UHGV virus genome: UHGV-0023958
DNA: 64,000 bases
Strand: one strand, 5' to 3'
From: a virus
The notes below the pieces were generated by a model. That model searched no databases, had not been told where the DNA came from, and was given only the letters and a program-made list of their open reading frames with translations. This document shows, one piece after another, positions 4,905 through 64,000 of this stretch. The position numbers and the translations under genes were made by a program. Positions within the stretch are counted from its first letter, which is position 1. Each line of letters begins with the position of its first letter.

Positions 4905-6235
4905 CGCAAGAAAATCCGTGACTTTAGTCGTGGGATGAATTGCGCGTAACAAGTTATGGAAGTAACTCGCGATAGAGAGTATGTTTACTCGATTCAATAT
5001 CACACAAAGAGGAGGTGAAGAATGTGGGAAAAGCTTATAAATATCGTATATATCCGAATGAAAAGCAGAAAGAGATAATAGCAAAGACATTTGGTTGTTG
5101 CCGTTTTGTATATAATAAGTATCTTGCGCAGAGAATTGAATTATATCAAACAAATAAATAGAGTTTGTCATACGTTAAGTGTGCAAAAGAAATATCTAAA
5201 TTAAAAGACGAACTTGAATGGCTTAAGGAAGTTGATTCCACGGCTCTTCAATCTTCCCTCAAAGATTTAGATAATACTTATCAGAAATTCTTTAAAGAAC
5301 ATACAGGATTTCCGAACTTCAAAAGTAAGAAAACGCACAGATATTCTTACAAATCTAGATATGTGAACGATAACATAAAATACCTCGGTAAATATATCAA
5401 ACTTCCAAAACTCGGATTGGTAAAAACGAAAAACAAGTTAATACCACAAGGAAGAATAGTAAATGTAACGATTTCTCAAGAACCAAGTGGTAAATATTAT
5501 GTTTCATTGTGTTGTGTAGATGTTGAAATAAAAGCATTACCAACAACTGGTAACACAATAGGCATAGATTTAGGAATTAAAGAATTTTGCATAACAAGTG
5601 ACGGAAAACTTGTGAACAATCCGAAATATCTTAAAAACTCGTTAAATAAACTTACAAAGTTGCAAAGAGAATTATCTCGAAAACCAAAAGATAGTTCTAA
5701 TCGTAACAAAGCAAGAATAAAAGTAGCAAGATTATACGAGAAAATTTCAAACCAGCGTAAAGACTTTTTACAAAAACTCTCAACCAATATCATTCGAGAA
5801 AACGATGTAATTTGCATTGAAGATTTGCAGGTGAAGAATATGGTTAAAAATCATAAGCTTGCACAGGCAATTAACGATGTTTCTTGGTCGGAATTTGTTC
5901 GAGAGTTAGAATATAAAGCACATTGGCATGGTAAGTTAGTTATTAAGGTTGATAGATTTTTTCCTAGTTCTCAAACTTGTAGTATTTGTGGATATAAGAA
6001 CGAGGAAACAAAAGATCTAAAAGTAAGAGAATGGGATTGTCCAGTTTGTCATACTCATCACGACAGAGATGTGAACGCTGCGATAAACATTCTTAATGAA
6101 GGACTAAAGCAATTAGCTTAAATATAAGAACCGCAGGAACTGTGGGGATAGCTTGGTAAATATTCTGACAGTAGTTGGAAGTTCCCAAGAATCTCACGGC
6201 TTTTAGCCGTGAGAGGTCCAAGGGATTAAAATAAT
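4905..6235 (+). mobile_element. IS200/IS605-family TnpB-only insertion element (no tnpA) with subterminal right-end hairpin
   Basis: TnpB ORF plus perfect 8-bp hairpin CTCACGGC-TTTTA-GCCGTGAG at 6193-6213 downstream of the stop, typical right-end/omegaRNA region; left boundary approximate. Confidence 0.55.
5024..6121 (+). CDS. tnpB: TnpB (IS605 OrfB, RuvC-like plus zinc finger) carrying one in-frame TAG at 5159-5161
   Basis: N-terminus [31 protein letters not shown] from GTG 5024, in frame through TAG into the 5165 ORF; RuvC motifs [27 protein letters not shown]; C-terminal CSICG..CPVCH zinc finger. Confidence 0.75.
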
Positions 6236-8822: not shown

Positions 8823-9082
8823 TTATAAGAGTTTCACCTATTCGGTTGGCGATGATACCGAAGTAACAAATTATTATTCTGCAGATACCATATATTATGC
8901 AATTGCCGACATTATTTTCGAAGATAATATTTATGATATTGTGAAAGACAAATTGACCGAACCAGAAATGGTTAGAATTATAACAAATCTTTCAAAAGAA
9001 ATTAAAGAGGCAAATATAAATATTGATTATTATATGGATTGCCTTAAAGAGTATTTTCACAACAAAGACAGCGAGGTTTAAA

Positions 9083-9493
9083 ATGAGATTTTCATTTAGA
9101 GTTTATGATTTAAATTATGATCATATTTTTTCTTATCACGAAATGTTTCATAAAAAAGATGATAGAAATAAAGTAGCTTATAAAATATATAAAAACATTG
9201 AAATGTTTTACATAACTCATAAAGACGAATTCCCAGCGATTATCGAAGTATGGAAATACAACGTTTCTTCGCATAATACACGTAAGTTGATGTGTGTTGC
9301 GAATTATGACGAAGAACAAAAAGAAGGGTTTTCGATTGCGTTCACAAATGAATTTATGAAAACATTAAAAGCGTACCCGCTTCCGAAGCCTGTGAGACGA
9401 GAGTTTAAAATGCAGTTCGGAGACCTCGTAAATATAATAGAAGATAGTATTTTAAAAAAAGACGGTGACGAAGATGCGGGACTGCTCTCCTAA
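9083..9493 (+). CDS. hypothetical protein
   Basis: SD AGCGAGG then ATG 9083. Confidence 0.4.
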   Translation: MRFSFRVYDLNYDHIFSYHEMFHKKDDRNKVAYKIYKNIEMFYITHKDEFPAIIEVWKYNVSSHNTRKLMCVANYDEEQKEGFSIAFTNEFMKTLKAYPLPKPVRREFKMQFGDLVNIIEDSILKKDGDEDAGLLS

Positions 9494-11199: not shown

Positions 11200-11938
11200 T
11201 GCAAAAAAAGTAAAATCTGAATTGGTAAACTGGATTAAGGAAACTGTTGGAGATTCTAATGTTGTTATTGGAATTAGTGGCGGTAAAGACTCTTCAATTA
11301 CAGCAGCATTATGTGTTGAAGCACTTGGTAAAGATAAGGTATATGGTGTTTTAATGCCACAGAACGTACAACTTGATATTGATAAAGCGCAACAGCTTGT
11401 TGATATTTTAGGTATTAAAAATTTTACTGTTAATATTGGTTCTACTTATAATGAATTGACTAAATGTGTTCACGAGGCATTTTGTTCATCTAAAGAAAAT
11501 TGCTATCTTCCAGATTTATATACCACTAATACTCCCGCAAGAATTAGAATGACTGTATTGTACGGTGTAGCAGCTTTAATTGGAAATTCTCGTGTTGCAA
11601 ATACCTGCAACCTGAGTGAAGATTATGTTGGTTATGCTACAAAATATGGTGATGGTGCAGGAGATTTTAGTCCTTTGAGCGATTTAACTGTAACAGAAGT
11701 TAAGCAAATTGGATATGAACTTGGATTACCGAAAGAACTTATTGAAAAGATTCCAGATGATGGTATGTGCGGGCAATCAGATGAGGAAAAACTTGGTTTT
11801 ACTTATGCTGTTTTGGATAAATATATTAGAACTGGTGAAATCGAAGATTTAAATACAAAGAACAAGATTGATAGACTGCATTTGGCTGGTCTTCATAAAC
11901 TTGTTCTTATGCCTAAGTTCATTCATAAAGAGTTATAA
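11192..11938 (+). CDS. nadE: NH3-dependent NAD+ synthetase NadE
   Basis: PP-loop GISGGKDSS; ARIRM; TKYGDGAGDFSPL; 248 aa. Confidence 0.75.
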   Translation: MFDAKKVKSELVNWIKETVGDSNVVIGISGGKDSSITAALCVEALGKDKVYGVLMPQNVQLDIDKAQQLVDILGIKNFTVNIGSTYNELTKCVHEAFCSSKENCYLPDLYTTNTPARIRMTVLYGVAALIGNSRVANTCNLSEDYVGYATKYGDGAGDFSPLSDLTVTEVKQIGYELGLPKELIEKIPDDGMCGQSDEEKLGFTYAVLDKYIRTGEIEDLNTKNKIDRLHLAGLHKLVLMPKFIHKEL

Positions 11939-27352: not shown

Positions 27353-27901
27353 ATGTATAAAATTGATTTGAGACTGAAAACGCTTTTCCCAGCGATTATG
27401 GGAGCAAGGGACGAGACTACCGATATTGAATTTAGAGTGATTTCGGAAAACGGAATTAACATCGATAAAAGCGTGGTTGTTACAGCAACCGATATAACCG
27501 ACAATATTTATGGCGTAGAAAACATTTACGTATATAAAAATTGTATCGTTGTAGAAGTGAAGCGAGATCCAGATGAAGATTCTTTAGGTGAAGAGTACAT
27601 CACCGACGAAGATACAGATGGTGATGAAAATCCGTATTCTGATTTTGATACACACGATGACAAACCGTTTTATGACGGACCGAAGCTCGTTGTAAACAAT
27701 TTTGATAAAAAGTCGGAAGAAGATATTATAATCGATGGTTTGGACATGGTTTACGGAGCGACTACAAACAAAACCGAAATCACGATTGTTTACCATCTCA
27801 AAAACTCCGATAAACCTTTACAGGCACAATTTTATCTTAAAGGCGATAAGACAAATCTGTCGAAAGAAGAAATTCTTAAAGAGTTGAACGATACCCTTTA
27901 A
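27353..27901 (+). CDS. hypothetical acidic protein
   Basis: ORF track. Confidence 0.4.
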   Translation: MYKIDLRLKTLFPAIMGARDETTDIEFRVISENGINIDKSVVVTATDITDNIYGVENIYVYKNCIVVEVKRDPDEDSLGEEYITDEDTDGDENPYSDFDTHDDKPFYDGPKLVVNNFDKKSEEDIIIDGLDMVYGATTNKTEITIVYHLKNSDKPLQAQFYLKGDKTNLSKEEILKELNDTL

Positions 27902-50733: not shown

Positions 50734-51295
50734 CAAACCTCCATTGGTTGTGCGAGGTGCGTTGCCCTTTATCGCAGTCAACCGATTTGTTTATTGGAAC
50801 ATCCGTATTGTTAAGCGGTACGGATGCAAATTCCGATTTGCCTTCAGCAGACAACACTGTTACATATTTTCAATGCAAACGCATTGGTTTTCTCCACTTA
50901 CGCTGGTACTTCCCTCGTGTTTCCTGCTCGCAAACGCACCGTTTTTTGTATCGCAACGTGCGCAGGAAATCCATACGAGGTATCACCCAACGTATTGGAA
51001 CGGAAATGCAACTGTTCCGCGAAACCGACTTTCTTTTTCTTCCTCTCGGTTAGTCTTACGGGAATACCCAAGTTCTACATCCACCAGCTTGAGACGGTGT
51101 TTCTTACATAACGAGATGTAAGTCCCATTGAAGATACTTAACGCTTGCTTCAACACAAACGAGGCTCAACCCTACCTGAAGGGGATACGCTCAACAGCTT
51201 CGTATCATCCTGTCCTCTGCATTTACACGGGCTTGGAACCGTCTTTGGCTGCATTACAGAGTGTTTTTAACGTGGTTATCACTTCCACGTGTTTT
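50734..51295 (-). ncRNA. candidate large structured RNA (long 5' leader, ORF-less intron or ncRNA)
   Basis: about 560 bp at roughly 50 percent GC versus about 33 percent in the window; no SD-preceded ORF on either strand; many local inverted repeats (ACGTGG..CCACGT, CCCCTTCAGGTAGGG, direct GTTGAGC repeat). Confidence 0.3.
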
Positions 51296-51720: not shown

Positions 51721-51753
51721 GTAAATAAAAAGCCCGCACATCTTGTGCGAGCC
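51721..51753 (-). terminator. rho-independent terminator (minus strand)
   Basis: minus-strand GCUCGCACA-AGA-UGUGCGGGC then UUUUUAUUU. Confidence 0.6.
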
Positions 51754-52040
51754 TCATAAATATTTAATTTAAACTCTATCCATTTCGATTTTTACATCTC
51801 TGTTATTATCATTTAAAACTTTAAAAAACAACAAAAGATTTTCCGCTCTTGCTTCAGGCGTTTTAAAATAAATAGGATTAGAATTGGAAACAAAATCATC
51901 ATTTTTATATAAATAAATATCAATATAATACGTATTCGTTTTTACATCTTGAGCTGTACAATCATAATTTATTCTACAAATCCCGTCTTCGCCTTCTGTA
52001 AACACACAAAATCTATCTTTTCGTTCACAATATCCCTTCA

Positions 52041-53202: not shown

Positions 53203-53231
53203 ATTATATCATAAATATAAGGGATTGTCAA
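53203..53231 (-). promoter_or_regulatory. sigma70-type promoter (minus strand) inside the central block, embedded in a palindrome
   Basis: minus strand TTGACA -17(atcccttatatttatga)- TATAAT; mirror CTTGAC..GTCAAG and CCCTTATAT..ATATAAGGG. Confidence 0.5.
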
Positions 53232-53518
53232 GCAATTTTAAATATATTTTTTAATTTTCTTCGGAAATTTCTTCTCTTCTGTCGAGAATGATTTCTGATT
53301 CGTCGGCTGTAACATACATGAATCTGTCTGAACCCCACTCTTCATACTGTGGATCGTGGGCGTAATCGATACAATAAATACCAAAACCTTCGTATGTTAA
53401 TAAAAGTTGATTTTCATTTTCAAGAAGAACTTTACAAACGCTTGCGATTGCTTTCCATAATTCTTCTTCCGACTTATATTTTTCGTGGTCTACTACAACG
53501 CAAGGTGTATTAATTTTA

Positions 53519-56329
53519 TTATTCATAAACAATTTCTCCGTCTTCGTTTATTAAGAAACTTTGCGCCTCTTTTGAAATAAGCATAAGTTTATACTTTCTT
53601 CCAAGGAATTCTTCGCCGTCTTCACATTCAATTGGCACGTATGTTTGTTTTTGTTCGATACAGTCGAGTATGTCATCACCAAGTATCTGCCAGGCAAAAT
53701 CCCAATTGAATTTCGTATATGATTGCGATAAAGCTTTAATATATGTCAACGTTTCCATCGTGGTAAGTTCGAGCGTCATCAAATCATTTTGAATTTCTTC
53801 TTTGATGATGTCGAGATAACCAAATCTTATGTCTTTAAAATCTTCATCGTCAACATCGAAATAAATGCTGTTAATAAGAGTGATTGCTTTTTTATTGCAG
53901 TATTTACGATACATATCGCGGAACTTTTGAAGAATATCTGGAATTATGATATAAGAATTTAAATCGTAATATGGAAGCATGCTTGTGCAGTTTTTATTAT
54001 ATTTAATATCAAAATCGATAGATTCGATATCACGACATAATAAATTCATCGTACAGTTTGTATTGATAAGTGGAAGAAACTTATGATATTTTTTTACAAA
54101 ATCATTCTCTTCTTTTGTTTTATTCTCTTTTATAAGAAGTTTTTTAAGTTTCTTTCCGAACATACATTTTGATGTTTCGTTATACGTATTTTCGTATTTC
54201 TTATATTTTTCGTTTAATTCTGGATATAAGTATCTAAAGAAATAAGGTTTTTTGGAAATAACGAGTGAATTATGATAATATTTTTCTTTTCTTTGCTCTT
54301 CTGTATCATCTTTGTCGATTTTCCAGATTTTAAGCCATTCGTCCTTCGGAGGACCTTTGGCTTCAACGCCTTTAATTCTGTCAATTTCCTGACCGTTGAT
54401 TTCTCGAAGAAGTTTTATGCGAAGCAGAAGCTCTTCCCGTTGCTTTTTTTGCTCTGGACGCTGGAACATCGGTAACATTGCTTCAATAATCGTTGAATAA
54501 TTACTGTAAGTTCCAACTTTTGTACCGAACCCACGAATATCTGTTTCTATGAAGTTTCTATGACAAATTTTGTGAGAAGGTGCCGGTTGTTTTTTATATG
54601 TGATAGGATTTGTATAATCTTTCATCGAACCTTTTAAAAATATCGGATTATTTGTGCTCATACAAATATCACCGTCAAAATCACTGTCTGAGTGTCGGAG
54701 TGTACTTAAATCATATATTGAATAAACAATCCCGCTTTCAATCCATTTGTACCATTTTGTTGTTTCTTCATTATCAAACAATTTGCAATGATTTATCTCG
54801 TGTTTATCAAGAAGTGGAGAGCGACAGAGAACTATTTCATCGCCAATATTTGCGCGATTTTTCCAGAAATTCGAATAAAAATGCTCACCGGGTAACACTC
54901 CGACGGGTGGCAATCCTAACGCGCTTTGACACTGTGCTATCGGATCGGAAATCATAAACGAATAATTTCCTTTAACCCATATTTTTCCAATTTTCGATTT
55001 ATTGATTGATTCAACTATGTTTTTGTAAATTTTTCTTTGGACATAAGAATCTTTTAAAAATTCTGGATTTTTTACAACCGCTTTCATAGCAAGGTTTTGC
55101 GCTCTTGTGTATACGTCAGAATATTCAATTTCCATATCTTGATTGAACCCACCGAGCGAATATAACATAGCATATAAATCATCTCCGCTACAAACTTTCT
55201 GAAGCCAATCGATGGTAGGTTGAATTAATTCTTTAACATCTTGTTCTTTTATATTTAAAACTTGAATATATTGATAATTTGCAAGAACCCATTCGTCATC
55301 ATATTTTTTGTTGTATCTAGATACACCCCATCCGATGTTATATTTAGTGGCATATGAATCAAAATCTTCCCAACTTGAATAAGCTTTGTATTCTTTAAAT
55401 TGACTTTCTGAAATCAAACAGTCTATATCTTCTATTTTATGTGGTATTCCCCATCTATCATAAATAACAGATATATTATACTCAGCTGCATACGCTTTAA
55501 AATCGAACGGAACGAGATTTCCTTTGATAAACACGGAGCGAACAACGTACGAACTGGCAACATAATCAAGCCCCATTTCCTCAGACCATTTCATTGCCAT
55601 TTCTGGAGAAACAAGCCCCTGTCCGTCACAGCTATTCATTGTTACGTCTTGGACTCTTTCCTCTACTGCCTTTTTCCCATCTTCTGTGTTTATAATCCAA
55701 TCGATTTTTTGATCTTTCAGTGTTGTTTCAAAATCTTTGATTATACAAACACGTGGTTTCGAAACCCACATTATCGAAGATGTTGAAAGAGAGAAATACG
55801 CAGACAGTTTGGCAATATTTGTTTCTTCGAGACGATTATTCAAATCGCACATCAAACGCGTAAATAATTCTTCGTAAATGCGCTCCGAACAGAATTGTAC
55901 CGTATTGTGTCTGATTTGTCCTGCACTGGCACTAAAACGAACATATCTTACACCGTTTAAATAAAACCCTGCTTTTGCAAGCCTTCTATATTCCGATTTT
56001 TTATTTACGGTAACAAGAACAAAATCTTTAACAAATAACTTATTTAAAATTGCATACCAGAATATTCTCGCATCTTTTGCTCTACCTTCTTTCTTTGCAC
56101 GTCTCATCGATCCACGAAGAAATTCTATTTCTTTAAATATCTCATGATGATTTCGATTATCGCCATTGATAAAACGAGCTTGTTGAAAAGCGATGTTATC
56201 TCCGAGTGAAACAAGATTTCCGTCCAAAGCAGCCTGTCTAGCATCGTATGATGGTATATCGAGGTTGTTTTCACAAATAAACTTTGAAGACAACTTTATA
56301 ATTTGATATAAAACTTGTTCGCGAGCCAT
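53519..56329 (-). CDS. putative YonO-like / two-barrel single-subunit RNA polymerase
   Basis: 936-aa protein with HSDSDFDGD (plus coords 54668-54682), matching the DxDGD metal-binding motif (NADFDGD in beta-prime; DxDGD in YonO/QDE-1-type RNAPs); translationally coupled TAATG with the upstream kinase. Confidence 0.5.
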   Translation of the reverse strand: MAREQVLYQIIKLSSKFICENNLDIPSYDARQAALDGNLVSLGDNIAFQQARFINGDNRNHHEIFKEIEFLRGSMRRAKKEGRAKDARIFWYAILNKLFVKDFVLVTVNKKSEYRRLAKAGFYLNGVRYVRFSASAGQIRHNTVQFCSERIYEELFTRLMCDLNNRLEETNIAKLSAYFSLSTSSIMWVSKPRVCIIKDFETTLKDQKIDWIINTEDGKKAVEERVQDVTMNSCDGQGLVSPEMAMKWSEEMGLDYVASSYVVRSVFIKGNLVPFDFKAYAAEYNISVIYDRWGIPHKIEDIDCLISESQFKEYKAYSSWEDFDSYATKYNIGWGVSRYNKKYDDEWVLANYQYIQVLNIKEQDVKELIQPTIDWLQKVCSGDDLYAMLYSLGGFNQDMEIEYSDVYTRAQNLAMKAVVKNPEFLKDSYVQRKIYKNIVESINKSKIGKIWVKGNYSFMISDPIAQCQSALGLPPVGVLPGEHFYSNFWKNRANIGDEIVLCRSPLLDKHEINHCKLFDNEETTKWYKWIESGIVYSIYDLSTLRHSDSDFDGDICMSTNNPIFLKGSMKDYTNPITYKKQPAPSHKICHRNFIETDIRGFGTKVGTYSNYSTIIEAMLPMFQRPEQKKQREELLLRIKLLREINGQEIDRIKGVEAKGPPKDEWLKIWKIDKDDTEEQRKEKYYHNSLVISKKPYFFRYLYPELNEKYKKYENTYNETSKCMFGKKLKKLLIKENKTKEENDFVKKYHKFLPLINTNCTMNLLCRDIESIDFDIKYNKNCTSMLPYYDLNSYIIIPDILQKFRDMYRKYCNKKAITLINSIYFDVDDEDFKDIRFGYLDIIKEEIQNDLMTLELTTMETLTYIKALSQSYTKFNWDFAWQILGDDILDCIEQKQTYVPIECEDGEEFLGRKYKLMLISKEAQSFLINEDGEIVYE

Positions 56330-56868
56330 TACACGCCCCTTTCTTTATATCTTTGTTCAATCAATTCATATAATTTAAAGCTTAAATCTTCGAGATCTTC
56401 GAGTGTACCGTCATTTTCGATATAAAAATCAAAATCATAATCATTCATCGCATTTTCAGAAGAATGTTTTCTTTGTTCTTCTGTCAAATCGTTTTCGATT
56501 GGTCTATCAACGAACAATGTAATAATTTCTTCCTTATCCGCAACGTTTGTCTCATTTGGATATCTACAGTCTGGAATAATTACTACTTCTTCTGGACAAC
56601 CAAGAACAAATTCTTTTGCGATTTTTACCCAACAATCAGATTTGTTGCTTCTATAAATATCTCCCGTGTGTTGAAGAATTGTTCTTCCAACAGGGCCTTT
56701 GTCACCTCGTGTCCAATGATAAGCGTTTTCGCAAATCATTTTCAGCGGATCGGCGAAATGATAAATCAAAACGCGTTTTCCTTCTTCTTCATATCTTCTT
56801 CTAAGAGCTTCTGCGGTACTATCCTTACCATGCCGCCCTTTACCAGAGATTAAAATAATCTTTTTCAC
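56329..56868 (-). CDS. deoxynucleoside monophosphate kinase (T4 gp1-like)
   Basis: MKKIILISGKGRHGKDSTAEAL parallels T4 gp1 MKLIFLSGVKRSGKDTTADFI (P-loop). Confidence 0.5.
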   Translation of the reverse strand: MKKIILISGKGRHGKDSTAEALRRRYEEEGKRVLIYHFADPLKMICENAYHWTRGDKGPVGRTILQHTGDIYRSNKSDCWVKIAKEFVLGCPEEVVIIPDCRYPNETNVADKEEIITLFVDRPIENDLTEEQRKHSSENAMNDYDFDFYIENDGTLEDLEDLSFKLYELIEQRYKERGV

Positions 56869-56883
56869 TATATAAGGTTCTCC

Positions 56884-57489
56884 TTAATTTATAAATTCTG
56901 GATGTTCATAAAAGAAAAGTAAACTTTCTTCAATTAAATCCCAGTTTTCTAAAATGTATACGCTTTCTTTATCGTATTCGCCAAGATATTGATTCCAAGG
57001 GAGCTGCATACCGTGTGTAATTAAAATTTTAATCGGTGCGTTTGTATTTAAAGAATCTGTTCTATCGTCAATCTGAATTCCGCCAGTCATATCAATATGA
57101 CCTTTACCAAAATCTGAAAGCGTATCTGTTCTAAATCCAACCCCAACGACTTCGGCCTCTGGAAGATATTTTGAAAAATACTCTTCTTTTCTCCGAAGAT
57201 TTTCAGAAGTTCCTTTTGTTACAATTTTTAAAGAAAATTTATCTTTATGTTTTCTCCAAAAGTTTTCAAATCCTTTTTTTATCTTTACTCTGTCAAAAAA
57301 ATCTTTGGAGTTATAAATTTCTGTAACTTCTGCTGGTGTTACTTCGTCGCAAATGGAATGGTAATTCCAATCTTCTAAATCCAAAATAGTTTTTGCAGGA
57401 GAAAGATTGTATTTTTCGTTGAGTATTTCAATTACAGCTTTAGACGAATCTAAAATTGTATCATCTGCATCAACATATAGAGTTACCAT
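56884..57489 (-). CDS. HAD-family 5'(3')-deoxyribonucleotidase-like protein
   Basis: HAD motif I LYVDADDTI; SD AAAGGAGAA; first gene of the minus-strand block. Confidence 0.45.
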   Translation of the reverse strand: MVTLYVDADDTILDSSKAVIEILNEKYNLSPAKTILDLEDWNYHSICDEVTPAEVTEIYNSKDFFDRVKIKKGFENFWRKHKDKFSLKIVTKGTSENLRRKEEYFSKYLPEAEVVGVGFRTDTLSDFGKGHIDMTGGIQIDDRTDSLNTNAPIKILITHGMQLPWNQYLGEYDKESVYILENWDLIEESLLFFYEHPEFIN

Positions 57490-57541: not shown

Positions 57542-57570
57542 ATTATACCACATTTTACAAAATTTGTCAA
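57542..57570 (-). promoter_or_regulatory. sigma70-type promoter (minus strand) heading the central block
   Basis: minus strand TTGACA -17(aattttgtaaaatgtgg)- TATAAT. Confidence 0.6.
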
Positions 57571-58251
57571 CTATTTTCGACGTATATTGTAAAATATTTT
57601 CACAATTTTTATTTTTATTTATTGACACATGTATATACGCGTGCGTACGCGCGTTTTTATTATATTATTATATTTATTATATATTATTATAAATATCTTA
57701 TATATTATAATATTTTTTAATTTATTTTAGATTCCCCACCCAAAGAAAAACCCACCCAATAATTCCTTCGAAAAATTTTCGAAGTTCATATTTCCAAATC
57801 CAAAAACAAAAATAGAATTGAAATCAAAATTAGAAATATGAAAATAAGATAATCATTCATTACATTCTGCCCATAATATAGATTATATTTTAAATTATTA
57901 TAATCACGATTATCTTTATTCACAGACACATTACTTAAAGTTTAAGTAATTCCTCCTCCCGTCTTTTTTATTTGAGGTATAGTTTGGGAACCACGGTCCT
58001 CTAACGGCAATTATTCATTAGCCGAGCGAATATCTCTTGTCAGGCTCGCAACACCAATTAGTTTTGTATTCGGGACCTATATAAGCAAACCGATACTTGT
58101 GAAAGGGAAGATAAACATTTTTGCTACCCTTGATCAACGTGGACCTATTTAGTTTGTGATTATTATAACATATATCTAAAAATAAGTCAAGCGATTTTGT
58201 ACTAGTTTCAGGAAATTTTTTAAATATTTTTTTAAAATCATTTGAATTAAC

Positions 58252-58280
58252 TTGACAAATATTTAATAATATGTTATAAT
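58252..58280 (+). promoter_or_regulatory. sigma70-type promoter heading the right arm
   Basis: TTGACA(58252-58257) -17- TATAAT(58275-58280); SD AAAGGAGG then ATG 58308. Confidence 0.6.
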
Positions 58281-58868: not shown

Positions 58869-59625
58869 ATTAGAAGCAATTAAATATATGCTGAATAATA
58901 AATCTTACATTCCCGAATTGAGTACAAATAAATAGGATGCCTGGCTCTTATATTATTTAAGAAAGAAGAAGGGAAAAGATAAAGACGAAGCATATAAGAT
59001 TTGGCTTCCGATTTATGAAACAGTACACGAAAAATCTTCCAAGGGCGAATACCTTGGTGTCTTTTGGAATAAGTGGAAAACTTCCGCTTCAACCGTCCGT
59101 TTAAACAAACAAAATATTGCAACGATTTATCAAGAAGAGATTGATAGAATAAATAAATGCGACGTTAAAGCAACTTGGCAGAAGCAGTTATTGTTATTGA
59201 TTTTGGTTTATGCGAAAATGACAAACAATTTCAGATTAAGCGAAATTAATCTCGGCCTTTTCGCGAAATATATCGGAAAGAAAACGAAAGATATTACCGA
59301 AAATCTTTCTTACTCAATGACGCAAGAAGCGATTAAAAACGAGATATTCGAAATGGTTGAAATAAAGGAGTGGGATGATATTGAAGGTTGCTGGGAAACG
59401 AGTAGATATTTCAATATTCACGAATTTAAGAATGGCGAAGTCATTTGTAATATATGGAACGGCTATCAAGTAAAAGAATTAGATCATTTGTTTCCTATTA
59501 TTAAAACTTGCGAGAATTGCGGAAGCGAGTTTCGACCGAGTTCTCGTGGAAAAACTTGTTTATGTGAAAGATGTTATAAGAGAAAAAGATATGATTTCCA
59601 AAACTCTTTTCATATTGTTAAGTAA
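58852..59625 (+). CDS. hypothetical protein with C-terminal zinc ribbon; one in-frame TAG at 58933-58935
   Basis: SD GAGGAGG then ATG 58852; reading frame open from 58852 to 59625 except the single TAG (codon 28); C-terminal CENCG..CLCERC. Confidence 0.5.
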
Positions 59626-59760: not shown

Positions 59761-59836
59761 GCTTTCATGGCTCAATTGGTAGAGCATTTGATTTGTAATC
59801 AAAGGATTCTCGGTTCAAGTCCGAGTGGAAGCTCCA
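59761..59836 (+). tRNA. tRNA-Thr (anticodon UGU), CCA encoded
   Basis: cloverleaf: acceptor GCTTTCA/TGGAAGC, D-stem GCTC/GAGC, anticodon stem TTTGA/TCAAA with loop TTTGTAA, T-arm CTCGG-TTCAAGT-CCGAG, discriminator T then CCA. Confidence 0.7.
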
Positions 59837-59890: not shown

Positions 59891-61108
59891 ATGATTGAAG
59901 AAAAATTTCAAATGTTAGACGGCGAGAATACCGATGAATACACAATTCGTATTTGTTCAATGCGTGAAGACGAGAATTTAACTTGGCAGGAAGTTGCTGA
60001 TATAATCAACGAAGAAACAGATAGAAGTTATTCTGAGAAAAAGTATCGCACTGATTATAAGCGTTTTTGCGAAGGCATGAATAAAGGTTATGAAATTGCG
60101 AAAGAGGAAAGTGATAATTCTTCTTTGTCGCAAGAAGAAATCACTGTTAAGCTTCGAGAATTCGAAAAAGCAAAAATCAAAATGCGCGACGAGCGTATTG
60201 ATTATATGCGGATTATTCGAGAGGAAGCGCGTAAAGAATCTTTTGTTGATTTGGTTCGTCGTGTAATTCAAGAAGAAGTTAAGCCATACGATAACGGTGT
60301 TTATATTCTTCCAGAAGAAACGTACGATGACGATATGATTGTTTGTTTGAGTGATTTACACACTGGAATGGTGTGTGATAATTACTGGAACAAATTTAAT
60401 ACCGATATTTTAAAGCAAAGACTCGATAGATATTTGGTTGAAATATTAAAAATTCAAAAATTGCACAAGTGCAAAAATTGTTATATTGCACTTGGTGGCG
60501 ATAATATTAGTGGTTTAATTCATGTTAATATGCGCTTGCAAAATAATGAAGATGTTATTAGACAAGTGAAAATTGCTTCTTTACTTATTGGCGATTTTAT
60601 TAAAGCACTCGATGATTCTAATTTGTTTGAAAGAATTCAGGTAAATAGTGTTGCAGGAAATCACTCAAGAATTTCTCCGAACAAACAAGATCATTTAAAA
60701 GGCGAAGAACTCGACGATTTAATTCCTTTTTATTTGAATGTTATGTTTATGAACAGACCAAATGTAAAAGTGTATGAAGATTGTTCGATTGATTCTACTA
60801 TAGATAGTATTGTAACACGCGCGGGAAGATTGTTCTATATAACCCACGGAGATAAAGACTCGGAAAAGGGTGTTGCCTCACGACTTACAATGATGTTGGG
60901 AAGAAAACCTGACGGTGTAATTATGGGACATAGACATCATAACGCGTATAATACTATCGATAATGTAAAAATTATACAAAACGGCAGTTTTGAAGGCGTT
61001 GATGACCATTGTATCAATATGCGTATTTCTGGTTCTCCAGAACAAGTCGTATTCCTTACAAACGCAGACAGAGTTGTTAAATGTTTGTATGATATAAATT
61101 TGGGCTAA
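59891..61108 (+). CDS. calcineurin-like metallophosphoesterase (Mre11/SbcD-like nuclease or phosphatase)
   Basis: ordered motifs LSDLHTG, ALGGDNISG, AGNHSRIS, MGHRHH. Confidence 0.4.
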   Translation: MIEEKFQMLDGENTDEYTIRICSMREDENLTWQEVADIINEETDRSYSEKKYRTDYKRFCEGMNKGYEIAKEESDNSSLSQEEITVKLREFEKAKIKMRDERIDYMRIIREEARKESFVDLVRRVIQEEVKPYDNGVYILPEETYDDDMIVCLSDLHTGMVCDNYWNKFNTDILKQRLDRYLVEILKIQKLHKCKNCYIALGGDNISGLIHVNMRLQNNEDVIRQVKIASLLIGDFIKALDDSNLFERIQVNSVAGNHSRISPNKQDHLKGEELDDLIPFYLNVMFMNRPNVKVYEDCSIDSTIDSIVTRAGRLFYITHGDKDSEKGVASRLTMMLGRKPDGVIMGHRHHNAYNTIDNVKIIQNGSFEGVDDHCINMRISGSPEQVVFLTNADRVVKCLYDINLG

Positions 61109-61172: not shown

Positions 61173-62453
61173 ATGATTTTTAAAAAAACACCAGTAGATA
61201 AAAAGTATGATGCTGCTGGCGATGATGAAGATGGTTTATCTTCTGAAAAATACCCTCCTCTTGGGAATTTTAACACCGTAAGACAACAAGGCGGTTGTTT
61301 TGGGTGTGGGGCAATACGAAAAATCTCATCTTATCCCATCGTTCATCCAAAAAGCGGCTGGGGTTTGATGGATAAAAACGGCAAAAAACACTTTGTGTTT
61401 TGTGAAAATTGTTTTGCAAAGTTAATAGATCAATATACCGAAGAGGCGCATGGAAATAAATATAAAGCTTTATATCGTATGTGTATGTATACAGGTTATT
61501 ATTACGATGATAAGCTTGCACACAGGGTTATAGAAGAAGAACATAAATATGACGATAACACTCCAGTTCCAAAATCCTATCACTGGGGCTTGCTTTATAA
61601 TAAAGCAGTTCGCGAAGATTTGATACTTTCTGATAAGACATTTTACGATTCCGATAATATTATGTTTGAGGAAGTTGTAAAATATCATAATCAACACAGC
61701 GTTGAAGATTTAATGTCTGACGAAGATAAAAACAATAGAATTACAATTTTGTCAGTCTTTCACTGTGATCCGTTTGAAGACGAAGAATTATTGGATAGAG
61801 TTAAATTACAAAACGACCTTGTAACAATGATTGACGATTCAATGGCGGACGATATGGTTCGTCAAAAGGCGGCAATCGAAATCGTTCGTTCGTTTCATCG
61901 TATCGATAAAATTAGTAAAGCTTTACAAGAATTACAAACAGATAAAGATACAATGCTCGAACATACAAAAGAGATTAAAGAGTTGTCTGAAACTAAACAA
62001 AAAGAAACAAGCTTGGTAACTCAATTCTCAAAAGACCACGGGTTTGCCGAAAAATACGCCACTGCAAAATCAAGAGGTTCTGGTTCACTTGGTTATATTA
62101 TAAAAGAAATGAACGAGAAAGGATATGATAGGGGTGCTGTCAATAAATTTGATATAGACACGGCAGCGGCAATGAAACAGGTTGCGGATATAAGTTCTTC
62201 ATCAATGGCGAAACAAGTTGCGCTTAGTGATTCTGATAAAGCTGCTATGATAAAAGATCAATCGATAATGATTAATCGAATGAGAGAAACGATGGAAAAA
62301 CAAGCTGAAGAATTAAGACTACTTCGTGAAAAACATTTGAAATCTGAATTATTAGACGAGTATAAAAAAGATTTGAAAGATAAAGGTTTAAATGAAGAAC
62401 AAATAGATAGAGCTGTTAAAGAAGAATTAGATAGAAGGATACCAGTTGTATAA
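61173..62453 (+). CDS. hypothetical zinc-ribbon/coiled-coil protein; possible terminase small subunit by position
   Basis: immediately upstream of and coupled (TAATG) to terL; N-terminal CFGCG..CENCF, long charged C-terminal helix. Confidence 0.3.
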   Translation: MIFKKTPVDKKYDAAGDDEDGLSSEKYPPLGNFNTVRQQGGCFGCGAIRKISSYPIVHPKSGWGLMDKNGKKHFVFCENCFAKLIDQYTEEAHGNKYKALYRMCMYTGYYYDDKLAHRVIEEEHKYDDNTPVPKSYHWGLLYNKAVREDLILSDKTFYDSDNIMFEEVVKYHNQHSVEDLMSDEDKNNRITILSVFHCDPFEDEELLDRVKLQNDLVTMIDDSMADDMVRQKAAIEIVRSFHRIDKISKALQELQTDKDTMLEHTKEIKELSETKQKETSLVTQFSKDHGFAEKYATAKSRGSGSLGYIIKEMNEKGYDRGAVNKFDIDTAAAMKQVADISSSSMAKQVALSDSDKAAMIKDQSIMINRMRETMEKQAEELRLLREKHLKSELLDEYKKDLKDKGLNEEQIDRAVKEELDRRIPVV

Positions 62454-64000
62454 TGATAAGTGTATATAAGAATTCTACCGAAATAGAAGTAACTACTCGT
62501 CGTGCTGAAATTTTTGAAAAATATAATAAAGTAATTCAATACGGAAGAAGAAACCCAGTGTGGTTTATAGAAGAGATTTTTAAAGTTCCACTTTTGGATT
62601 ATCAAAAATATATTATAATGAACTCCTGGACTAAATAGCGTGCGATATGGGTATGTTCTCGTAACGCGGGTAAGTCCATGATGGGTGCATTATATACTAT
62701 GACAAAAGCATTATTGTTTCCGTCTTTTGAATGTTGGTTTATGTCTTTGAGTGCAAATCAGGCACAGACAACATTTAAAAAATTGGAAGATATTGCTAAA
62801 AAGAATATACCCTCACTTATTGGTTCAAGTGATGTTTTTATGAATGAAACCGTAAAATTACAAGCAAATTCTGACGGTTTCACACATCAAAAATCAAACC
62901 ATGAAGTAAAACTTTATAACGGTTCTCATATTACAACGTTGGCTGGTAAACCAGAAACAACCGTTGGTATGCGAAGCCATTTGAGCGTATATGATGAAGC
63001 TGGTAAAATTTCTGCTGAATATTATGGTTTAACAGAACCATTTGCAACGCAAGATACCAACTTCAAAACTGGTGAAAAAATTGATTTGAACGTTATTCCA
63101 AAAATGATTCCAACACAACTTCTTTATATGTCTTCTGCGGAAGATACCTCTTCATATTTATGGGATATTTATAAAGAAGGCGCGAAGAGAATGATGATGG
63201 GTGATAACACTTGGTTTGTCGCAGATATAAATTGTGAAATTCCGTTACACCCTACAAAAGGCGGTAAGCCGTATGCTCCACTGTTAAATCAACAGGTTGT
63301 TGATGACGCTATGCGTGTAAACGAATATAAAGCATTGAGAGAATATTATAATATATTTGATACTACTGGTGGTAACGATGCTGTTATCAATAGAACTATT
63401 ATTATGAGAAACGAAGAAGAGTATCTTCCTGTTTTTGCTAACGATAACACGGTTACGCCAGGAGACAGAATATATGCTTTGTGTTTCGATCCTGCTTTGA
63501 TGTCGGATAACTCAATTATCTTGATTGGAGAACTGACGAAAAAAGACGGAGTTGGTTGGACTGGAAGAATAGTAAATTGCATCAACCTTATTGAATCTTT
63601 AAATAACGGAGAGAAGAAAATTTTGACAGCAGTTGAACAAGTCGAGCGTTTAAAGAAATTGATTATTGATTATAATGGAAACGCACCAGAGTATAAGAAT
63701 TTAACAATATTTATAGATCCTGGTTCTGGTGGTGGCGGACATATATATTCAGATATTCTTATGCAGAATTTTGTTGATGAATATGGAATTAGACACTTTG
63801 GTTTAATCGACCTGGAAGATGAGAAATCTGCTTTGGAACAAAACAAATTCCCACTCGCTGTAAGAGATGTTTTACATTTGTATACTGCAACAAAATATAA
63901 AAATGAGTTTTACAGTGCGGTAACAACAATGTGCGAACAGGATTTGGTTAAATTTCCTTACACAGATTCGTTCGGTTCTAAAAACTTTACTATAAACGGA
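62453..64000 (+). CDS. terL: terminase large subunit (partial, runs off window) with one in-frame TAG at 62636-62638
   Basis: 61-codon N-terminal ORF ends at TAG; same frame continues RAIWVCSRNAGKSMMGALY (Walker A) .. HLSVYDEAGKI (Walker B) to the window end. Confidence 0.7.

Follow-up and report, generated by a model that had tools for sequence, protein, structure and literature searches.

A YonO-family two-barrel RNA polymerase gene beside the late block of an uncultured gut phage

YonO of phage SPbeta is a strictly DNA-dependent, highly processive RNA polymerase with an essential aspartate triad; plaque formation and the expression of 37 late SPbeta genes require it, and its transcripts begin upstream of yonK-yonJ (PMC5467207). 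Firmicute phages were recognised to encode YonO-like proteins in 2003-2010, and the function of YonO itself has been known since 2017 (Forrest et al. 2017, PMC5467207). Eight residues are common to every member of the two-barrel RNA polymerase superfamily (Iyer et al. 2003; Ruprich-Robert & Thuriaux 2010), namely one Asp and two basic residues in the beta-like barrel together with R-x-P and DxDxD in the beta'-like barrel, which in Qde1 correspond to D709, R738, K743, R962, P964, D1007, D1009 and D1011 (PMC2919709). Here we analyse a 64,000-nucleotide stretch of the virus genome UHGV-0023958 (the window), which contains an open reading frame (ORF) for a protein of 936 residues that is almost certainly a member of the YonO-like two-barrel family. 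We suggest that this polymerase is produced from a host-type promoter and then transcribes the neighbouring late genes of the phage, a reading to which we give a probability of about 0.75.

53519..56329, minus strand: YonO-family single-subunit two-barrel RNA polymerase, 936 residues, assigned by Pfam, BLASTP, hhalign, an AlphaFold2 model and Foldseek

The ORF starts with ATG and contains ...LSTLRHSDSDFDGDICMS... and ...LRHSDSDFDGDICMS... in its translation. A preliminary description of this DNA had given the position of the 936-residue ORF exactly, leaving out its strand, and had located HSDSDFDGD at 54668-54682. DFDGD (residues 550-554) is indeed encoded there on the minus strand, but this 15-nucleotide range holds the last five codons only, and the whole motif occupies 54668-54694. 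By itself the motif is weak evidence, at the level of chance: the window, translated in six frames, has two copies of D.DGD, of which the other (27611-27625) lies within an acidic run. Because the pentapeptide alone is not rare enough, the family assignment rests on homology and on the predicted fold, and it was homology (Pfam, BLASTP and hhalign matches) that led us to reject a chance occurrence of DFDGD.

The sole Pfam match of the protein is PF05183, the RNA-dependent RNA polymerase family of QDE-1 and RDR (40.4 bits, E=2e-10, residues 111-688; curated gathering score 23.8), and it spans profile positions 55-572 of 582. In PHROGs, a family of unknown function, phrog_8308, matches at 2e-95. 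BLASTP aligned residues 115-615 with SPbeta YonO at 27% identity (E=2e-36), placing DFDGD opposite DNDGD in YonO, and hhalign of a 49-homologue profile against YonO returned a probability of 100% (E=3e-40, residues 103-699), with the family motif KKPYFFR included in the alignment. Forty GenBank phage records were matched by tblastn with the polymerase, among them yonO of SPbeta/SPBc2 and of 20-odd SPbeta-like phages (E about 1e-30), Bacillus phage BUCT082, Clostridium phage c-st, and Enterocloster and Thomasclavelia phages; 24 of the records come from SPbeta-like phages, and the labels in the 40 records vary between 'RNA-dependent RNA polymerase', 'DNA-directed RNA polymerase' and 'hypothetical protein'. 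Homologues number 668 in the protein collection, mostly already tagged PF05183, and 156 in IMG/VR. With 19 kb of the window as query, megablast returned no close genome among GenBank phages, and searching the available PDB copy by sequence, with either the protein or the 49-sequence profile as query, gave nothing relevant and matched no YonO-like structure.

An AlphaFold2 model computed on the 49-sequence alignment (predicted local distance difference test, pLDDT, 89.4; predicted template modelling score, pTM, 0.83) contains both double-psi beta-barrels, with the DFDGD motif inside the two-barrel fold. Foldseek against the PDB ranked RDR2 (9e-17; 7W82, 7ROZ) and QDE-1 (~1e-15; 2J7N, 7Y7P) at the top, with roughly 900 columns aligned over most of the chain; only the core superposes, at 12-16% identity, a TM-score of ~0.45 and a high root-mean-square deviation. 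The next matches were P74 gp62 and P23-45 gp64 of Thermus phages (P23-45 gp64/P74 gp62: 8F72, 8F5M) and gp66 of the crAss-like phage phi14:2 (6VR4), and the best matches also included the largest subunits of multisubunit RNA polymerases and isolated double-psi beta-barrel domains. These phage proteins are likewise transcriptases with a two-barrel catalytic core, but their sequences have no detectable similarity to the polymerase described here; gp66 is part of a virion protein of >2000 residues, gp64 (~600 residues) belongs to a different lineage, and the metal loop of the Asp triad reads DxDGD here and DFDxD in crAss-like phages. Matches in BFVD were all two-barrel polymerases, the nearest, with 70% identity, being a 563-residue 'RNA-dependent RNA polymerase' from an uncultured siphovirus.

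The 936-residue protein thus shows every computable feature of the two-barrel superfamily and of the YonO/QDE-1 lineage, while the hallmarks of multisubunit beta'/Rpb1 chains (clamp, bridge helix/trigger loop, funnel, switch 2, and separate beta and beta' chains) are not found in it. The proposal of a YonO-like, non-canonical two-barrel polymerase, made in the preliminary description from the DFDGD motif, is therefore borne out by a PF05183 match above the cut-off, by similarity to YonO and by structural matches led by RDR2 and QDE-1, and the further barrel with conserved basic residues that it anticipated is present and carries conserved Asp, Arg and Lys. Neither of the refuting outcomes named there, a prediction lacking double-psi barrels or a motif placed in the loop of some other fold, came about. 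The positions of the two barrels and of the catalytic residues are as follows.

55490..55762, minus strand: first double-psi beta-barrel (beta/Rpb2-like), residues ~190-280; beta strands 194-274 in the model, limits estimated from secondary structure
55625-55627, minus strand: D235 in DGQG, first barrel
55523-55540, minus strand: R264...K269 in VVRSVFIKG, first barrel
54650..54988, minus strand: second double-psi beta-barrel (beta'/Rpb1-like), residues ~448-560
54815-54823, minus strand: R503-S-P505 (CRSP), second barrel
54668-54682, minus strand: metal-binding D550-F-D552-G-D554, second barrel

All eight universal residues are present, as D235, R264, K269, R503, P505, D550, D552 and D554, and they are invariant both in the 49-sequence alignment and in 59 unique sequences of 31-99% identity, YonO included (by alignment D249, R266, K271, R492, P494 and D535/537/539). 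Compared by spacing, the residues lie 29/5 and 2/45 apart, against 29/5 and 2/43 in Qde1, and in the model the first group falls in the beta-rich segment ~190-280 and the second in the segment ~448-560. The metal ligands are D235, D550, D552 and D554; the nucleoside triphosphate and the RNA 3' end are contacted by R264, K269 and R503, the last of which is positioned by P505. A pseudo-enzyme was rejected because every catalytic residue is invariant.

The kinship with QDE-1 and RDR2 brings up a different activity, in which the protein would not transcribe DNA but would make copies of RNA or amplify it, ribozyme-processed phage RNAs being one example. The two eukaryotic enzymes are its top family and structural matches, with identical or nearly identical spacing of catalytic residues; relatives carry the annotation 'RNA-dependent RNA polymerase', and self-cleaving ribozymes (twister, twister-sister, pistol) occur in relatives and, as a candidate, in the window. 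However, QDE-1 and RDR2 are silencing enzymes that make double-stranded RNA, whereas the gene studied here is a phage gene in a transcription-type context, and its position beside the late block suits a transcriptase. YonO, the sole characterised bacterial or phage member, strongly prefers DNA templates (PMC5467207), QDE-1 too is reported to accept DNA templates (PMC2950127), and the annotations are names transferred from Pfam, not tests. We regard an RNA-copying enzyme as highly improbable and retain a DNA-dependent RNA polymerase as our working assignment.

Next, we inspected the transcription unit that holds the polymerase gene, together with the signals and genes that follow it on the same strand.

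57570..57542, minus strand: predicted host-type (sigma-70/sigmaA) promoter, TTGACA-17-TGgTATAAT with extended -10, 12/12 consensus match
56884..57489, minus strand: putative 5'(3')-deoxyribonucleotidase, NT5C-like, HAD superfamily, 201 residues, DADDT motif, first gene of the unit
56329..56868, minus strand: deoxynucleoside monophosphate (dNMP) kinase, 179 residues, Pfam DNMK PF21448 1.2e-15
53251..53526, minus strand: ORF of 91 residues, function unknown, whose ATG shares bases with the polymerase stop codon (ATGAATAA)
53203..53231, minus strand: second perfect sigmaA-type promoter by consensus match, right after the 91-residue ORF and ahead of small genes and a DNA methyltransferase
51729..51755, minus strand: first intrinsic-terminator-like hairpin downstream on this strand, 12-bp stem with 6 GC pairs, T-run

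The promoter lies ~50 nucleotides ahead of the first ORF in a three-gene unit that ends with the polymerase, whose ATG shares bases with the stop codon of the dNMP kinase gene (TAATG) and is preceded by the ribosome-binding site AAAGGGG. An operon with a dNMP kinase and a nucleotidase had been proposed before; the kinase is clear and the gene order is conserved in relatives, but the nucleotidase matches are weak (Pfam NT5C 4e-4, below the cut-off; PHROG 2643 deoxyribonucleotidase 4e-4), with PHROG 420 matching at 2e-14. The co-expressed nucleotide enzymes probably serve the supply of deoxynucleoside triphosphates, not transcription. The 91-residue ORF is probably co-translated with the polymerase gene; it occurs in some close relatives only, and Pfam and PHROG scans of the window ORFs gave no family match for it. 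The methyltransferase beyond the second promoter matches PHROG 799 (2e-36), and the hairpin at 51729..51755 likely ends the transcription unit or units.

The host-type promoter of the preliminary description is well founded as a consensus match: the perfect TTGACA-17-TGnTATAAT stands ahead of the three genes and recurs in relatives, although such a consensus fits early expression as well as the middle expression suggested there. The window as a whole holds 12 perfect TTGACA-17-TATAAT sites, most with the TG extension (plus strand, for example 15232, 24213, 27977, 28527, 29023, 32635, 35502 and 58252; minus strand, 57570, 53231, 42575 and 35312), and 21 sites with at most one mismatch, which marks it as an early/middle region driven by the host RNA polymerase. 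All of these sites begin at or before 58252, and none is present in the last 5.7 kb, which takes in the YonJ-like gene and the beginning of the terminase gene. Between the divergent promoters lies an ORF-poor 0.5-kb stretch (57600-58160), into which an 11/12 sigmaA-type match at 58190-58162 on the minus strand points; a structured RNA in its ORF-free part, 57930-58160 on the minus strand, was considered and dropped, as its folding is no better than that of shuffled sequence (z=0.08).

These promoters bear on the idea of a polymerase that is packaged in the virion and injected with the DNA for early genes, like crAss gp66, N4 vRNAP or the tape-measure-fused polymerase of P23-45. With 12 perfect host-type promoters in the window, early transcription needs no phage enzyme, and the gene itself sits among nucleotide-metabolism genes behind such a promoter. 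Moreover, the protein is a stand-alone 936-residue product and not a module of a giant virion or tail protein of >2000 residues. We see a very slim chance for this packaged form, and return to a polymerase made by the host machinery during infection.

To place the locus among its relatives, we fetched 80 loci from the 156 IMG/VR relatives, on contigs of 95-200 kb, several of them 95-99% identical to the window. Down to about 37-45% identity of the polymerase, the dNMP kinase gene lies directly upstream of the polymerase gene and the nucleotidase-like gene before the kinase, in many relatives ~1.1-1.2 kb upstream of the polymerase gene. A near-perfect sigmaA-type promoter on the same strand is found within 2.6 kb upstream in 27 of 40 non-redundant relatives, usually ~1.2 kb before the polymerase start. 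The phage falls within a broad group centred on Enterocloster phage PMBT24 and the proposed 'Phassvirus' genus, and papers on phages of this group left the polymerase undiscussed. Bin labels of the metagenome-assembled genomes are mixed, mostly Clostridia with some Bacteroidales; the latter are probably binning artefacts, and the host is probably one of the gut Clostridia/Bacillota.

In almost every locus examined, SPbeta included, the polymerase gene is linked to a YonJ-like gene. The distance is 3.5-8 kb where the YonJ-like gene is downstream on the same strand, and 3-7 kb where it is upstream and divergent, which is the arrangement found in the window. In the relatives the YonJ-like gene is followed by terminase and structural genes; in the window, a gene for 426 residues and then the terminase large-subunit gene come after it without real gaps. 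The features at the start of this block are as follows.

59191..59625, plus strand: ORF for a protein of 144 residues with a C-terminal CxxC...CxxC zinc ribbon and a basic tail; C-terminus of the same type in relatives
59761-59836, plus strand: tRNA-Thr(UGU), directly upstream of the YonJ-like gene
59891..61108, plus strand: YonJ-like exonuclease/phosphoesterase, Metallophos_2, PHROG 284 exonuclease 6e-61

PF27386 (YonJ_N) matches the 99%-identical copy of the YonJ-like protein in L004. In many relatives, too, the position upstream of the YonJ-like gene is taken by transfer RNA (tRNA) genes, for Thr, Asn or Tyr or in larger arrays. Many divergent relatives encode a zinc-ribbon-type protein immediately ahead of the YonJ-like gene, and the 144-residue protein, for which Pfam and PHROG scans returned no family match, is a speculative candidate for an accessory, transcription or DNA-binding factor. 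Counting strong sigmaA-type promoters across 44 non-redundant loci, we found 143 in ~471 kb upstream of the YonJ-like start and 17 in ~315 kb downstream, a 5.6-fold lower density. The YonJ-like gene marks the start of this promoter-poor block, which runs into the terminase gene and may form the target region of the polymerase.

The locus resembles that of SPbeta in several respects. Both belong to large siphovirus-type phages of Firmicutes, both polymerases are single polypeptides with two barrels, homologous over ~530-600 residues across both barrels and with the same eight catalytic residues, and both genes have a YonJ-type exonuclease gene and the late block beside them and a host-type promoter-like site upstream. 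They differ in that yonO follows yonP, whereas the gene here shares a unit with the nucleotidase-like and dNMP kinase genes; in that the late block is co-directional in SPbeta and divergent here; and in that the metal loop reads DNDGD in YonO and DFDGD here. The phage studied here comes from a gut metagenome. The identity of the protein, its fold and catalytic residues, the expression signals and the synteny are supported directly.

By analogy with YonO, we propose that the host RNA polymerase would transcribe the polymerase gene early or in mid-infection from the consensus sigmaA-type promoter, so that the polymerase would be made in one translationally coupled unit with the nucleotidase-like and dNMP kinase genes. 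It would then act as a processive DNA-dependent RNA polymerase on the long, host-promoter-poor late block, from near the YonJ-like gene into the terminase and structural genes. Its template specificity, its timing, its target genes and any role of the nucleotide enzymes are what we infer from that comparison, and the takeover of late transcription envisaged in the preliminary description is suggested by YonO together with the synteny.

Several observations weigh against this model. Outside the homologous core, the ~100 N-terminal and ~240 C-terminal residues of the protein (936 residues, against 839 in YonO) do not align with YonO, and identity is only 27%. No late promoter emerged in the 330 nucleotides upstream of the YonJ-like genes in 20 divergent loci, where the ribosome-binding region (GATTAAAAGGAGAT) and tRNA genes are all that recurs. 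A sigmaA-type promoter stands right before the YonJ-like gene in L002 and L014 (perfect) and in L003 and L052 (near-consensus), and in the window no clear terminator follows the sigmaA promoter at 58252-58280 before the YonJ-like gene is reached, so that at least the opening genes of the 'late' block may be transcribed by the host polymerase. Structural operons are also promoter-poor in many phages without a polymerase of their own. It is because these points weaken the late-gene step that the model as a whole is held with less confidence than the near-certain family assignment.

The same promoters, and the lack of a recognised terminator after 58252-58280, speak for a related alternative, in which transcription of the late genes falls to the host RNA polymerase, perhaps aided by a phage factor, and the YonO-like enzyme, a genuine two-barrel polymerase all the same, has a narrower or different job such as a specific non-coding RNA or tRNA transcript, or priming. 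The tRNA genes just ahead of the YonJ-like gene in many loci would suit such a job, as would the >1 kb of non-coding sequence that follows the YonO start site in SPbeta. That start site is bracketed by published primers (L001, about 8925-9190), and the region had no sigmaA-type consensus by eye. Against this alternative, 37 late SPbeta genes depend on YonO, the linkage of polymerase gene and late block holds across very divergent phages, and host-type promoters become ~5.6-fold rarer past the YonJ-like gene. Furthermore, no sigma factor or other RNA polymerase subunit was recognised among the ~60 window ORFs scanned, a scan confined to the larger ORFs of this part of the genome. We consider this division of labour unlikely, and favour transcription of the late block by the YonO-like polymerase.

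The polymerase gene of the window is uninterrupted, but in at least 14 relatives inserts of 255-1170 nucleotides break it up within the DFDGD codons. The split genes are listed here by locus.

L032, ~11309-11565: split polymerase gene; the insert gives a weak match to the whole length of the group I intron model (21 bits, E=0.003), which would place the splice within the Phe codon
L074, 11645-12679: split polymerase gene, with an insert that encodes a 273-residue GIY-YIG-like protein
L027, L031, L034, L041, L052, L054, L058, L060, L063, L064, L073, L075: split polymerase genes

Group I introns at such codons, some of them with homing endonuclease genes, are typical of essential, highly conserved targets, and their presence in relatives counts in favour of the polymerase model. 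The splits inside the DFDGD codons account for truncated 'RdRP' annotations, such as the 563-residue BFVD entry.

Use of the TAG codon in the window is unusual. The stops of its 96 ORFs of at least 80 residues are TAA in 73 cases, TGA in 22 and TAG in one. The terminase large-subunit gene (62453-64000, plus strand) carries an in-frame TAG at 62636-62638, just before Walker A (…NSWTK, then the TAG, then RAIWVCSRNAGKS…), which is kept in eight relatives of 96-98% nucleotide identity, while the 89%-identical L011 has CAG (Gln). In L013, a gene neighbouring the terminase has a further TAG where all others have Gln. A TnpB-like IS605-type transposase ORF (4922-6121, plus strand; PHROG 506, 7e-121) has a TAG at 5159-5161 that splits off the typical N-terminus. 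Recoding of TAG to Gln has been reported in related gut phages (PMC10607447), and the pattern seen here suggests that late genes may be subject to TAG-to-Gln suppression or recoding. Neither the window nor 36 related loci yielded a suppressor tRNA.

Because of the conserved in-frame TAG in the terminase gene and the near-absence of TAG as a terminator in the window, one could imagine a double lock on the late genes, with the phage polymerase, possibly guided by the zinc-ribbon protein, controlling their transcription and amber (TAG to Gln) suppression controlling their translation. We hold this to be distinctly doubtful. More remote still is the notion that the enzyme, as a member of the RNA-dependent RNA polymerase family, would also copy RNA and be functionally tied to the self-cleaving ribozymes of the clade.

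As to these ribozymes, the window holds a twister-P1 candidate at 51260-51209 on the minus strand (Rfam RF03160; 57.5 bits, E=3e-12; gathering score 67.2). Most of its conserved core is intact, it lacks one of the hairpins in the family model, and the fold z-score is only -1.68. It lies 36 nucleotides past an ORF of 54 residues and is followed by ~350 nucleotides of GC-richer non-coding sequence. The ORF-free stretch that contains it (50860-51295, 430 nucleotides) is 91-97% identical in 12 close relatives, above some flanking genes, and had no other Rfam match. Near the polymerase genes of relatives, structured RNAs scoring above the Rfam gathering thresholds comprise twister-sister, pistol, twister-P5, RAGATH-18, HEARO and abiF.

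L052, 2053-2132: structured-RNA site
L073, 13336-13550, 17384-17433 and 18554-18619: structured-RNA sites
L032, 1331-1392: structured-RNA site
L027, L041 and L074: abiF RNA (Rfam), beside tRNA genes

The remainder of the window includes, at ~6200-27200 on the plus strand, a nicotinamide adenine dinucleotide (NAD) set consisting of a NAMPT-like protein, NAD synthase, an isochorismatase-type nicotinamidase and a cytidylyltransferase-like NMNAT. The same region encodes a nucleotide/folate set (deoxycytidine monophosphate deaminase, ThyX and FolD), a pyrimidine-dimer glycosylase, and two YopX-family proteins, which are another SPbeta-type marker.

For the window alone, the outcome is a correct annotation and not a discovery, as the type of enzyme is already known and the protein adds a clear new YonO-family member from an uncultured gut phage. 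Mis-annotation is widespread among relatives, which are entered as 'RNA-dependent RNA polymerase' or 'hypothetical protein', or, if an intron interrupts the gene, as truncated proteins. Among the known relatives of cellular RNA polymerases the YonO-type enzymes are the smallest, and one has been studied so far. Our comparison indicates that the type is not confined to Bacillus; it is the signature of a large clade of phages with genomes of 95-200 kb, many from gut metagenomes, whose members include cultured Enterocloster, Thomasclavelia, Clostridium and Bacillus phages and which have in common an expression cassette and a position of the polymerase gene beside the late genes. The clade thus offers many sequences for structure work and promoter hunting, and cultured phages in which the late-transcription model may be probed.

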